From Escherichia coli (GTDB lineage: Bacteria > Pseudomonadota > Gammaproteobacteria > Enterobacterales > Enterobacteriaceae): 64,000 bases of DNA. The stretch lies in the NCBI RefSeq assembly GCF_003019035.1, contig NZ_CP027447.1. One strand, 5' to 3'. Shown here piece by piece: positions 17,347-21,415 of the stretch; the first letter of the stretch is position 1; each line of letters begins with the position of its first letter. The translations under genes were made by a program, and so were the position numbers. The notes below the pieces were generated by a model. It worked only from the letters and a program-made list of their open reading frames with translations, did not search any database and was not told the origin of the DNA.

Positions 17347-17997
17347 TTACATAGCGTAGTAATATGCTTTCACCTGCTCCCAGTCCGCTTTGGGGATCGG
17401 CTCCAGATATTTTTCCAGCTGGCGGAAGTCATGATTAATCGCTTTATCACGACGCAAGCGGCGACGACTTTTCTCCAGGTCAAGAAATCCAGCTTCTGCC
17501 TTACCTTCTGTTTTCACATAGATATGGCGAACATAACAACAGCCATGCTGACGATTAACGCTATGCATTTTCTTAAACGCCAGCGCCACTGCTTTCAACA
17601 TGGCTTGCCGTACTTCGTCAGAATAAGGCGATACTGCATGCCGGGCATACCAGTCAGCAATGCTGATGAACCCCGCCATATCTTCAGTCACCAGCAACGC
17701 GCGCCATTCCCCCTCAATTTTCACCGCTTCACCAAAAACGATCTTCGGCACGATGACACCAGCCCGTTCCAGTTCTTTAATTACCGCAACCTCACGGACA
17801 ATCGTTGGTCGACCGAACGGATAACGTACGGAATGAAACAGATGATGCGTCATGCGCTTTACATATAGCTTTTTGCCGTTGCGCTCGACGCATTGCACCC
17901 CGCTCATACCATTACGGCGATAGTTAGGCTCTTCAACCCAGTCGCCCTCTGTTGCCCACCAGTGATTAAATTCGTCGTGCTTTGCTGAAACTGCCAT
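17347..17997 (-). CDS. inaA: Acid-inducible Kdo/WaaP-family kinase-like protein InaA
   Basis: 216-aa ORF (MAVSAKHDEFNHWWATEGDWVEEPNYRRNGMSGVQCVERNGKKLYVKRM) in the expected genomic position. Confidence 0.9.
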   Translation of the reverse strand: MAVSAKHDEFNHWWATEGDWVEEPNYRRNGMSGVQCVERNGKKLYVKRMTHHLFHSVRYPFGRPTIVREVAVIKELERAGVIVPKIVFGEAVKIEGEWRALLVTEDMAGFISIADWYARHAVSPYSDEVRQAMLKAVALAFKKMHSVNRQHGCCYVRHIYVKTEGKAEAGFLDLEKSRRRLRRDKAINHDFRQLEKYLEPIPKADWEQVKAYYYAM

Positions 17998-18077: not shown

Positions 18078-19268
18078 TTAATGAATTTCTTTTGCCGCTA
18101 CTAGCATGACACCGCTTTTGCCCTTCATTTGCAGCGCATAGACTCCACCAGCCACTACCACTAATAGTGCACCCAGCAGATAAATCATTCGGTAGCCAGT
18201 ATGTGCAACCATCATCCCCATCACACAGGCTCCCAGCGCCAGGCCTGCATCCATCGCATTGAAGAAGAGGGAGTTTGCGACACCGATTTTATGCGGTTCC
18301 ACTGAACTGATAATCTGCGTCTGAAAAACTGGCGTCACGGAACCATACCCGATACCAATCAACGCGCCAGAAACAACCATCATTATGCTTCCCTGGGTGT
18401 AGCCGAGAACCACCAGTCCAACCGTAAAGAACACAAGGCAAGGGTAAACCACATATTTCGGTCCTTTTTTGTCGCAGACATTGCCGGTAAAGGTACGGCA
18501 GATCATCAGGAAGATAGCGTAGCAAAGCAGGAAATTACTGGCTGCCGACATCAGGTTAAGTTCGCGTGCATAAAGCGCCAGAAAAGCAGAAACCCCGGCA
18601 TACGAAAAGGTCATAAAAAAGGTGACCATCGCAAATGGCAACGCCGCGCGATCGAACATGGCGGCGAAGCCCATTTTCGGCGTTGAACCATCAGCATGGC
18701 TGATAACCGGCGGCACTGTCATAATCAGCGACAGAATAATCCCCACCGCTGCCACGCCGGTGCATAACCAGAAAGCCATATTAAAGGCCTCCCAGCGCGC
18801 CATATTCAGGCCAATCCACGGCCCGACCACCATTGCCAGCCCCATTGCCAGAGAGAAAAAACTGATGCCCTCCCCACGTCGGGAGGCCGGGATCAGCCGC
18901 GCGGAAATCGTTCCTTTTACCGTAGTGATAACCCCGAAGGTAATACCATGAAGCACCCGAATAAAAAGCAGTGATTCAATTGAGTGGCAAAAAGGATACA
19001 GCGCAGTGACCACCAAGAAGGCCAGAGAAGAGAGCCCCAGAATAGTTTTATTCGAATATTTGCCCACCCATTGCCCGGCAAAGGGGCGAATAACAATGGC
19101 GGCAATTAAAAATAAAGTCACCAACAAACCTGCTTTATCAGGAGAGGCATGCAAGCGGTCTGAGATATAAATTGGCAACAATGTTAGTAAAACATAAAAG
19201 ACGAAGAAAATAATAAAACTGATGATGGTTATTGCCCAAAAATCCTTCGTCCATAACTTCTCTTTCAT
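18078..19268 (-). CDS. MFS transporter (12-TM, drug/metabolite:H+ antiporter-like)
   Basis: 396-aa highly hydrophobic ORF with MFS loop motifs (GQWVGKYSNK, RLIPASRRGEG). Divergent from a LysR regulator. Confidence 0.8.
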   Translation of the reverse strand: MKEKLWTKDFWAITIISFIIFFVFYVLLTLLPIYISDRLHASPDKAGLLVTLFLIAAIVIRPFAGQWVGKYSNKTILGLSSLAFLVVTALYPFCHSIESLLFIRVLHGITFGVITTVKGTISARLIPASRRGEGISFFSLAMGLAMVVGPWIGLNMARWEAFNMAFWLCTGVAAVGIILSLIMTVPPVISHADGSTPKMGFAAMFDRAALPFAMVTFFMTFSYAGVSAFLALYARELNLMSAASNFLLCYAIFLMICRTFTGNVCDKKGPKYVVYPCLVFFTVGLVVLGYTQGSIMMVVSGALIGIGYGSVTPVFQTQIISSVEPHKIGVANSLFFNAMDAGLALGACVMGMMVAHTGYRMIYLLGALLVVVAGGVYALQMKGKSGVMLVAAKEIH

Positions 19269-19419
19269 ACCCTACCGCCTGTCAGGATGACGCACGCAGA
19301 CAACACTCCCGTTACTGCGGTTGCGTCAAATTGTGATGTACTTTGCAGAACAGAAGTATAAATGGCGGCATGCTATTAGAGAAATTAATCGTTTTAATAT
19401 TATTGATTAGCAAACTCTA

Positions 19420-20319
19420 ATGACTCTTACCCAAATAAATTCTTTACTCGCCGTGCTGGATTACGGTGGCTTTACTGAAGCCAGCAAGCGATTGTTCATG
19501 ACGCAGTCGGCGGTAAGTCAGGCAATTGCTGCCCTCGAACAAGAACTTGGCGTGAATATACTGTTACGCGATCGCCGTAAAGCTATACAACTGACCTCTG
19601 CAGGTCACCGCATTATGCATCATCTGCGCGCCATTAATCGGGAAGTGAACGCAGTAAAAGAGATAGCCGAGCAGGAAAAGCAGAACCCTCAAAGAACGCT
19701 GAGACTTGGTTGTTTCCCCAGCGTCTGCGCCTGTATCTTACCGGCTGTGATTCGCTACTTTGAAATTCATCATCCGAATATAAAAATTATTCCTTTTGAG
19801 GAAAATAGCACAGCGATTATTGATTCCCTTCAGAATGAATCCATTGATGCCGGTTTTGTTCATTTTCCGGTGAGCGGAATGTACTCCGTGCCCATTTATC
19901 AGGATAAATTCACCGTAGTGTTACCGCCCAACCATGCTCTGGCAAAAAACAGCACTATTACAGTGGAAGAGTTAATGGGTGAACCATTAATTATTAGTAA
20001 AGGACGCTATGAATTAAGCATTATGGCACTATTTAAAGAAAAGAATATTACCCCACAGATAAAATATGAATTTAATCACCCGGATACAGCGATCAGTTTT
20101 ATTCGACAGGGATTAGGCATCGCCTTATTACCAGAGTTAACGCTGAAAACCATTGCAGATGAATTGTGTTCCGTTCCTCTCGAACCAACCTTCTATCGAC
20201 AGATTTCGTTGCTGACTAAAGAAAAGCCGGTAGAAGGCAGTCCACTGTTTTTACTACAAATGTGCACAGAACAATTAGTGGAGAGTGGAAAATTTGATAT
20301 GAGACAGGATGGCGCATGA
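19420..20319 (+). CDS. LysR-family transcriptional regulator
   Basis: 299-aa ORF with N-terminal HTH (GGFTEASKRLFMTQSAVSQAIAALEQELGVNILLRDRRK) and a LysR substrate-binding domain. As I recall, K-12 has only the pseudogene fragment yfaH at this position. Confidence 0.8.
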   Translation: MTLTQINSLLAVLDYGGFTEASKRLFMTQSAVSQAIAALEQELGVNILLRDRRKAIQLTSAGHRIMHHLRAINREVNAVKEIAEQEKQNPQRTLRLGCFPSVCACILPAVIRYFEIHHPNIKIIPFEENSTAIIDSLQNESIDAGFVHFPVSGMYSVPIYQDKFTVVLPPNHALAKNSTITVEELMGEPLIISKGRYELSIMALFKEKNITPQIKYEFNHPDTAISFIRQGLGIALLPELTLKTIADELCSVPLEPTFYRQISLLTKEKPVEGSPLFLLQMCTEQLVESGKFDMRQDGA

Positions 20320-20338
20320 ACGCCATCCTGCAGTAGCA

Positions 20339-21415
20339 TTACTCTTTATTAAGGAATTTTACTGCCTTATCAGGGAAATCAGTAAACAGCCCATTTACAC
20401 CCGCTTTGTTATACAGAGCATCATATAACTGATTCACATCAGTAGTGTATTCAGGCAGCTTATCTGACCGCACGGTGTAAGGATGTACTACCAGTTTATT
20501 CTGCTGAGCATCCTGCACCATGCCAGTGAGTTTGATATTACCCGGCTGCGATGTCTCCTCAATCAACATATGGTAATCCGGACCAATACCATCAGCATAT
20601 TCCGCCACCTGTTTCATGGCCCCCGGCGTAAACATCCAGTCGTAGTTGTAATTAACCCAGCTTCCGTCCGGTTGTTTCTGCTGAGTTTCGTTCCAGTCGG
20701 TATAGGCAATCAGCTGTACCAGATTGAGGTCCATGCCCATTTTAGGTTCCAGCTCATTCTTAATACGCTTCAGTTCATCGGCATCAAAACATTGCAAATA
20801 AACTTTGTCGTCCTTATCGGTGTAACCATATTTCTTCAGCACTTCCAGCGTTTTTGCCGCAATATCCTTCCCCTCCTGATGATGGAACCACGGCGCTTTA
20901 ATTTCTGGATAGATACCGATATTTTTCCCGGTAGAGTGATTTAACCCCTGAACAAATTCAATCTCTTCTTCGAAAGTGTGTACCCGGAAGTCAGATTTAC
21001 CCATCGGGAAACGCCCCGGATAAGTCTGTACTTTCTTACCGTTTTCAATATCGAAACCTTCGGTAAATTTCAGTGACTTAATTTCATCGAGCGTGAAATC
21101 TATCGCGTAGTAACGACCGTCTTTGCGCGCCCGATCCGGGAAACGATCGGCAACATCAGTAACACGATCGAGATAATGGTCATGCAGAACAACCAGATGG
21201 TCGTCTTTGGTCATCACCAAATCCTGTTCCAGATAATCCGCTCCCTGCGCATACGCCATCGCTTTTGCTGGCAGCGTATGCTCCGGCAAATATCCACTGG
21301 CACCGCGATGGGCGATGACTATTTTTTCGTTGCTGTCCGCCGCCATTGCACTGCTTCCCATGATCATTCCACTCATCATGATCGCCATGCTAAGGTTTTT
21401 CAGCGTCAATTTCAT
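20339..21415 (-). CDS. glpQ: Periplasmic glycerophosphodiester phosphodiesterase
   Basis: ORF 20339-21472. Preferred start is ATG 21415 (MKLTLKNLSMAIMMSGMIMGSSAMAADSNEKIVIAHRGASGYLPEHTL), giving 358 aa with a signal peptide. Confidence 0.95.
   Translation of the reverse strand: MKLTLKNLSMAIMMSGMIMGSSAMAADSNEKIVIAHRGASGYLPEHTLPAKAMAYAQGADYLEQDLVMTKDDHLVVLHDHYLDRVTDVADRFPDRARKDGRYYAIDFTLDEIKSLKFTEGFDIENGKKVQTYPGRFPMGKSDFRVHTFEEEIEFVQGLNHSTGKNIGIYPEIKAPWFHHQEGKDIAAKTLEVLKKYGYTDKDDKVYLQCFDADELKRIKNELEPKMGMDLNLVQLIAYTDWNETQQKQPDGSWVNYNYDWMFTPGAMKQVAEYADGIGPDYHMLIEETSQPGNIKLTGMVQDAQQNKLVVHPYTVRSDKLPEYTTDVNQLYDALYNKAGVNGLFTDFPDKAVKFLNKE

Follow-up and report, generated by a model that had tools for sequence, protein, structure and literature searches.

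The K-12 pseudogene yfaH is what a single deletion has left of a two-gene unit. The stretch of Escherichia coli DNA analysed here (64,000 nucleotides, hereafter the window) carries that unit entire between inaA and glpQ, as a gene for a transporter of the major facilitator superfamily (MFS) and, divergent from it, a full-length yfaH coding for a LysR-type transcriptional regulator (LTTR). K-12 lost the pair by one microhomology-mediated deletion of 1,879 bp. Comparison of sequences across genera further shows that Enterobacteriaceae ancestrally had the pair between yfaE/inaA and glpQ, that it has been kept there under purifying selection, and that the K-12 state is derived. As for the way the unit works, we favour with moderate confidence a regulator that would activate the transporter gene while repressing its own, together with a DHA1-like transporter that would act as a proton-coupled exporter.

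The local gene order is nrdA-nrdB-yfaE-inaA-[MFS, LysR]-glpQ-glpT-glpA (Table 1). Both open reading frames are real genes, not chance ones, because they match Pfam domains. The first-pass annotation of this DNA had given the limits of the two frames, their head-to-head layout, the 151-bp gap between them and their flanks inaA and glpQ, and all of this proved exact. It had also described both frames as uninterrupted. This holds for the transporter gene, which is free of lesions, and for both domains of the regulator, but not for the 3' end of yfaH, which is shifted by the loss of one nucleotide. Between the convergent yfaH and glpQ, a hairpin is likely to be a bidirectional terminator. An Rfam search returned only two sub-threshold chance matches. 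A human commensal isolate, E. coli SCU-301, matches the window here with 100% identity.

Table 1. Features of the inaA-glpQ interval and its flanks, in window coordinates.
Feature	Position	Strand	Remarks
inaA	17347-17997	minus	flank
MFS transporter gene	18078..19268	(-)	396 aa, ATG start; orthologue of O157 Sakai ECs_3121
Segment missing in K-12	18185..20063		1,879 bp; BLAST end points and junction sequences
Divergent control region	19269..19419		151 bp, common to the MFS and LysR genes
Conserved TGCGTCAAATTGTGAT	19322..19337		invariant TGTGA; fixed spacing from the dyad
Conserved GTATAAA	19356..19362		possible lysR -10 or activation-site element; Escherichia, Salmonella, Citrobacter, partly elsewhere
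Most conserved intergenic block, ATTAGAGAAATTAATCGTTTTAATATTATTGATTAG	19375..19410		candidate YfaH recognition site; near-invariant from Escherichia to Leminorella
Perfect dyad ATTAA-N5-TTAAT	19384..19398		operator-like; contains T-N11-A at 19385-19397; invariant across most genera
LysR-type regulator gene yfaH, full length	19420..20319	(+)	299 aa here, ATG start
A4 run	20289..20292	(+)	A5 in K-12, O157 and cryptic-clade alleles; sequence comparison
Hairpin between convergent lysR and glpQ	20305..20330		10-bp stem; RNA fold -19.6 kcal/mol, z = -3.6
glpQ	20339-21415	minus	flank

Origin of the K-12 remnant and ancestry of the pair

The interval between inaA and glpQ, 2,341 bp long in the window, measures 462 bp in MG1655, where the pseudogene yfaH (b2238) is the only annotated feature. 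The first-pass annotation had described just this, a lone yfaH remnant in a much shorter interval, and it was right. The alignment with MG1655 that it proposed could be carried to the end points, and it resolves the difference into a single deletion. Its junction falls within CAGATAAA, a microhomology of which the window has copies at 18177-18184 and 20056-20063. Codons 1-361 of the MFS gene, the whole control region and yfaH codons 1 to about 214 were removed. The K-12 derivative strain used for the comparison has an inaA-glpQ interval identical to that of MG1655, and PGAP marks both fragments that remain in it, of 105 nt for the MFS gene and 243 nt for the LysR gene, as 'missing N-terminus'. 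Ungapped piecewise identities were unusable because of 1-nt indels, and they were excluded. What is known in K-12 as the protein YfaH is the C-terminal fragment (last 68 codons) of the window's regulator, since the NCBIfam model of that 68-aa protein, NF007272, matches residues 226-291 of the regulator over model positions 2-67 with 139.6 bits, for a cut-off of 139. The K-12 pseudogene is thus given a precise origin, in an event that also took the MFS gene and the common promoter region. K-12 being a natural double null, it makes a clean host for expression of the pair and substrate screening.

To place the unit in a wider context, the MFS protein was scanned against a one-genome-per-species collection, which gave 38 loci whose neighbours were compared by tblastn. 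The LysR gene adjoins the MFS gene divergently in 22 of the 22 enterobacterial loci extracted, which cover 10 or more genera. Within Escherichia and Salmonella the carriers are E. whittamii, two other non-coli Escherichia species and S. enterica subsp. arizonae and diarizonae; elsewhere they comprise at least six Citrobacter, three Kluyvera, Klebsiella spallanzanii, Superficieibacter, Phytobacter, Pluralibacter, Pseudocitrobacter and Leminorella. On one side, nearly all pair-carrying taxa have yfaE-nrdB, and on the other Escherichia, Salmonella, most Citrobacter and Pluralibacter have glpQ-glpT. Protein identity to the window ranges from 79 to 97% for the transporter and from 61 to 95% for the regulator. 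MFS orthologues are 396 aa long in most genera, with dN/dS of 0.05-0.09; those of the regulator have 292 aa (289 in one case), with dN/dS of 0.05-0.22. It is because of this synteny across genera, and of dN/dS values that stay within 0.05-0.22 for the two genes, that the pair is taken as ancestral. The same divergent arrangement between yfaE/nrdB and glpQ-glpT in other genera bears out the proposal, made at first reading, that the window displays the undeleted ancestral state. In Kluyvera and Klebsiella the regulator abuts open reading frames of glpABC size, a resemblance judged by size, not homology.

The transporter and its likely direction

The assignment of the transporter to the MFS follows from its sequence, with Pfam MFS_1 matching residues 14-346 at 2e-45 and with 12 hydrophobic segments by the Kyte-Doolittle method, a crude one, hence about 12 transmembrane (TM) segments. 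Of the motifs expected in such proteins, motif A (DHA1 pattern GxLxDRxGRK) is degenerate in loop 2-3, AGQWVGKYSNK, and good in loop 8-9, GNVCDKKGPK. A sequence resembling the antiporter motif C (GxxxGPxxGG), GLAMVVGPWIG, is present in TM5 with the GP plus one G. The best full-length profile matches, spanning residues 10-380, are the YfcJ-type PRK05122 (109.3 bits, cut-off 374) and the YhhS-type PRK12382 (85.1 bits, cut-off 364), in neither of which the subfamily score is reached, and the staphylopine (metallophore) exporter CntE (73 bits, cut-off 235). A multidrug-resistance superfamily model is also among the best curated matches, below its cut-off. The YfcJ/YhhS-type proteins and CntE share with the window's protein a 12-TM efflux-type architecture, at scores far below the cut-offs, and we place it as a sister lineage of theirs, not as a member. 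Among solved structures its closest relatives, at low similarity, are NorA, a DHA1 multidrug exporter of Staphylococcus aureus (2e-13, over the N-terminal six helices), and SotB, a sugar efflux protein (7e-5, full length); nothing ties the window's transporter to quinolones or sugars.

Export is the direction to which most of this points, and we consider it the probable one. Four elements argue for it: the curated family matches, the relatedness to NorA and SotB, the motif C-like GP of TM5, and neighbourhoods that comprise no catabolic gene beside the pair in any genus (about 25 loci). Since the family matches fall far below their cut-offs, both the export direction and the substrate class depend on weak similarity. 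The degenerate motif A of loop 2-3 also tells against this reading. An importer, with YfaH sensing an external nutrient or metabolite and switching on its uptake, is an unlikely alternative with some arguments of its own. MFS_1 takes in importers and exporters alike, and the C-terminal half of the protein weakly matches symporter families for aromatic acids, sialate, galactonate and lactate. CynR and HcaR, moreover, are among the better matches of the regulator, and CynR with cynX and HcaR with hcaT are parallels of the uptake type. These hints have to be weighed against best matches over the full length, and nearest solved structures, that are exporters, and against loci where the lack of a catabolic enzyme gene would be unusual for an uptake regulon.

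The regulator and its candidate operator

YfaH as encoded in the window combines an N-terminal winged helix-turn-helix (Pfam HTH_1, residues 3-63, full model, 1.2e-17) with an effector domain resembling periplasmic binding proteins (LysR_substrate, residues 88-268, 6.4e-37), and among solved structures CysB and BenM come closest to it. These two domains, a length of about 300 aa and a divergent target preceded by a dyad all mark it, at the level of sequence, as an LTTR. When compared with the named equivalogs GltC, CidR, AlsR, CynR, HcaR, CysB and OxyR, it reaches the NCBIfam cut-off of none, the best scores being 129.8 bits vs 350 for GltC, 125.7 vs 415 for CidR and 119.6 vs 277 for CynR.

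LTTRs are expected to recognize T-N11-A boxes, and a search for these in the control region had been suggested. One such box does lie within a conserved dyad; the bare motif search, by contrast, was uninformative (3,837 occurrences vs 3,855 expected). As the bare motif is no commoner than chance, we turned to cross-genus footprinting, with an alignment of this intergenic region from 23 taxa. The block that stands out contains the perfect dyad ATTAA-N5-TTAAT, whose centre precedes the lysR ATG by 29 bp and the MFS ATG by 123 bp. Of the two inverted repeats in the intergenic region that have 5-bp arms, it alone is conserved across genera. The pattern is also rare, with two occurrences in 64 kb for 0.13 expected; the second, at 53758-53772, was rejected as another operator, since it falls within a coding sequence rich in AT and probably reflects base composition. 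The GTATAAA and TGCGTCAAATTGTGAT blocks keep a constant distance from the dyad, and the stretch from the conserved blocks to the MFS start codon differs between taxa in both its length and its content, as expected of a 5' leader. All three blocks are kept in the E. coli allele of LR-48-type strains, which has a LysR gene of only about 75% identity. Conservation, fixed spacing and rarity together make of the 36-bp block with its dyad a candidate operator.

On the minus strand, CACAAT (19335 to 19330) may serve as the -10 element of the MFS gene. The dyad centre would then be near -68, where LTTR recognition sites canonically lie. A scan for consensus sigma-70 promoters found none in the intergenic region 19269..19419, so that we infer both where the promoters lie and the '-68' geometry.

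The mechanism that we hold to be the most likely can be pictured as follows. YfaH would bind as an LTTR tetramer to the dyad and the adjoining conserved bases. This site would precede a weak MFS promoter, located near 19330, by some 65-70 bp. On the lysR side it would either immediately precede the promoter and leader or overlap them, a position from which YfaH would repress its own gene. With a small-molecule effector bound, it would activate the transporter gene, and the product, a proton-coupled exporter of the DHA1/YfcJ-YhhS type, would expel the effector compound or its relative. In the LysR family, a regulator divergent from its target and subject to autorepression is an established architecture. 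E. coli has other divergent LysR/MFS pairs, PunR-PunC (YdhB-YdhC) and YnfL-YnfM, of a type with a short common control region bearing a T-N11-A dyad, and AaeR-AaeXAB is a LysR-activated efflux system, even though AaeAB is not an MFS pump. The logic expected here is theirs, effector-dependent activation of a pump with autorepression of the regulator. The likeness does not extend to orthology, and none of the three is among the qualifying profile matches.

Retention, loss and decay in E. coli

Of the complete E. coli genomes surveyed (5,426 in all), 3,132 have the K-12-type junction, 1,057 have a B2-type interval (as in NC101) where a 102-bp filler contains no gene, and 1,216 have at least 80% coverage of the segment deleted in K-12 and hence keep the pair. 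The three states sum to 5,405 genomes, and about 78% of complete genomes are without the unit. The B2 filler was considered as a decayed remnant of the pair and rejected as such, having no significant similarity to the window, to the divergent allele or to the outgroups; loss in B2 therefore follows from outgroup parsimony only. The exact layout of the window, with the pair and without a further insertion of 1.7 kb, is found in 483 genomes. That insertion, which carries a gene for a 356-aa hypothetical protein (Sakai ECs_3123), sits between the LysR stop and the hairpin, directly upstream of the latter in O157-type strains, and it is present in 1,053 genomes. Because cryptic clades and E. whittamii are without it, the 1.7-kb segment is best seen as a later insertion. 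The reverse polarity, in which the window would have arisen by deletion from the three-gene O157 state, was discarded, as the cryptic clades, E. whittamii and K-12 share the two-gene junction.

Where the pair is retained it is often broken, by IS1 or IS5 insertions or, in LR-48, by an internal stop in the MFS gene. A TTG-to-TAG nonsense change at Leu25, within the HTH of the regulator, leads gene callers to propose a 266-aa protein; in the assembly collection it is listed in 9,110 index blocks. The pair was thus lost or inactivated repeatedly in E. coli, in at least five independent events, and this repeated loss implies that the unit is dispensable in the species.

This raises the question of whether the unit of the window is itself on its way out. 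The loss of one A changes the penultimate codon of yfaH, turning the ending ...SGKI*, which the orthologues that were read have in this or a similar form, into ...SGKFDMRQDGA*, with a 7-aa extension that runs into the terminator hairpin. If this frameshift were the first lesion of a pseudogene, the pair would be inactive. The at least five inactivations elsewhere in the species (K-12 deletion, B2 gap, Leu25 stop, IS1/IS5, LR-48 MFS stop) lend some colour to the idea, which we nevertheless regard as rather improbable, a little more so than import. Both LysR domains and the operator-like dyad are intact, with only the last residue changed and the 7-aa tail added; the transporter has its 396 aa without lesion and a dN/dS of 0.05 against the O157 allele; and the 299-aa form of YfaH recurs as the same allele on 181 contigs (at least 1,000 contigs have the 292-aa form). 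Because the change falls past both domains, the tail is probably tolerated, and the regulator of this strain probably still functions.

A bolder construction sees in the pair an inducible system dedicated to the export or detoxification of a niche-specific compound, with its repeated destruction reflecting selection against carriage, not drift, and the LR-48-type allele a switch in effector specificity. This would be a long shot. In LR-48-type strains the yfaH allele is deeply divergent, at about 75% nucleotide identity, and a search of 5.8 billion proteins for its donor found no closer relative.

The intact pair is an ordinary and already annotated one that belongs to no named equivalog, and its novelty was overrated at first reading: O157 Sakai has both genes intact (ECs_3121 and ECs_3122, about 98% identical in protein to the window's pair, same locus and arrangement), and 1,216 of the 5,426 complete genomes have the pair. 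Sakai differs from the window by its 1.7-kb insertion with ECs_3123 between yfaH and glpQ and by a YfaH of 292 aa. Its annotation calls ECs_3121 an 'antibiotic efflux protein' and ECs_3122 'yfaH, transcriptional regulator', and RefSeq has generic names for both genes in more than 1,000 genomes. The substrate had been described as unassigned, and this agrees with the public record, where the sources say only 'MFS transporter' and 'LysR family transcriptional regulator' and where we found no paper giving a function for yfaH or ECs3121-3123. What is added here is an exact map of the deletion, the population frequencies together with the independent inactivations listed above, and one specific operator candidate; beyond bookkeeping, the significance is small.

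That the pair might be a horizontally acquired islet of some E. coli, the K-12 state being the original one, is scarcely credible: the G+C content of the MFS gene (0.49), the LysR gene (0.43) and the intergenic region (0.42) is lower than the average of the window (0.51) and two Firmicutes have an MFS protein 55% identical to the window's, but K-12 keeps the 3' ends of both genes around a clean junction and the pair is syntenic across genera, which together refute this origin for E. coli, and a transfer involving Firmicutes, if any, would predate the diversification of the family. The neighbours of the Firmicute homologues are inconsistent (a radical-SAM maturase, two-component systems, USP, SDR) and were set aside as clues to the substrate. 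A distant divergent pair exists in Neobacillus species, with 34% identity for the MFS protein and about 36% for the regulator.

Neighbours and relatives of the transporter pair

Comparison of the window with loci L007-L027 (homologous regions extracted from other genomes, enterobacterial relatives included) placed inaA (window 17347-17997) next to the MFS transporter gene only in the Escherichia loci and in a single locus of Pseudocitrobacter. Elsewhere (Salmonella arizonae and diarizonae, Citrobacter, Kluyvera, Klebsiella and others), yfaE is directly abutted by the stop codon of the transporter gene. Because of this distribution of gene neighbours, it is inaA, rather than the transporter and its divergent LysR-type regulator YfaH, that looks like the later arrival at the site. 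Further afield, the MFS proteins of two Firmicutes, Desulfosporosinus sp. FKB (L029) and Bacillus sp. EB600 (L030), share 55% identity with the transporter of enterobacteria, while identity in other Bacillota, at 30-35%, is far below that value. This likeness, together with the sub-genomic G+C content of the pair (0.43-0.49), hints at an old inter-phylum transfer. A 3.5-kb contig labelled as a metagenome-assembled genome of Collinsella sp. (L031) contains glpQ, the 356-aa gene of the 1.7-kb insertion described below, yfaH and the transporter gene; its proteins are 93-100% identical to those of the yfaH locus in E. coli, and it is almost certainly an E. coli contig mis-binned into an actinobacterial assembly.

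Features of the yfaH locus and its variants (L-numbers, extracted homologous loci)
Feature	Source	Position	Remark
yfaH Leu25 nonsense allele		L047:2423-3301	also L048, L049
Divergent intergenic region and yfaH allele	E. coli LR-48	L043:4070-5112	corresponds to window 19200-20380
102-bp filler	E. coli NC101 (B2)	L004:2299-2400	occupies place of pair
AT-rich 1.7-kb insertion	O157:H7 Z1813	L003:4495-6215	insertion point at window ~20306
Near-identical second dyad copy ATTAATAGTTTTAAT	window	53758-53772	14/15 bases

Alleles of yfaH and its control region

One allele of yfaH that has been sampled very widely, with entries in 9,110 index blocks and the label Shigella sonnei in one source, has TAG in place of the TTG codon for Leu25, within the helix-turn-helix; gene callers start it at Met27 and report an intact-looking 266-aa 'LysR family regulator'. 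Another allele, that of LR-48, is present in approximately 99 E. coli genomes. Across the intergenic region and the yfaH gene its DNA identity to every lineage sampled (E. coli, cryptic clades, Salmonella and Citrobacter) is only about 75%, with flanks 96-99% identical; its protein forms a separate cluster, the nearest others reaching at most 84%, and in LR-48 itself the adjoining transporter gene contains an internal stop. In Citrobacter sp. Res13 and wls619 (L008, L010), a 56-bp insertion separates the conserved TGTGAT and GTATAAA blocks, which would break the distances that the conserved control-region elements otherwise keep constant. The candidate YfaH operator, the dyad ATTAA-N5-TTAAT, has its second copy inside an AT-rich 405-aa reading frame (52936-54153) downstream of an elaC/rbn-like gene; this copy is probably a chance product of base composition rather than an operator.

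Filler and insertion next to glpQ

The filler stands where the pair would be in 1,057 B2-type genomes; it was not significantly similar to either the pair or the outgroups, and it includes the terminator hairpin in a diverged form. The 1.7-kb insertion, found in 1,053 of 5,426 E. coli genomes and in no other species, has the stop codon of yfaH on one side and the glpQ terminator hairpin on the other. It encodes a 356-aa hypothetical protein (Sakai ECs_3123) without a match in NCBIfam or PADLOC. Some genomes that bear it also have the K-12-type deletion, which removes most of the pair, and there the insertion is itself interrupted by IS1 (KFu023, L044).
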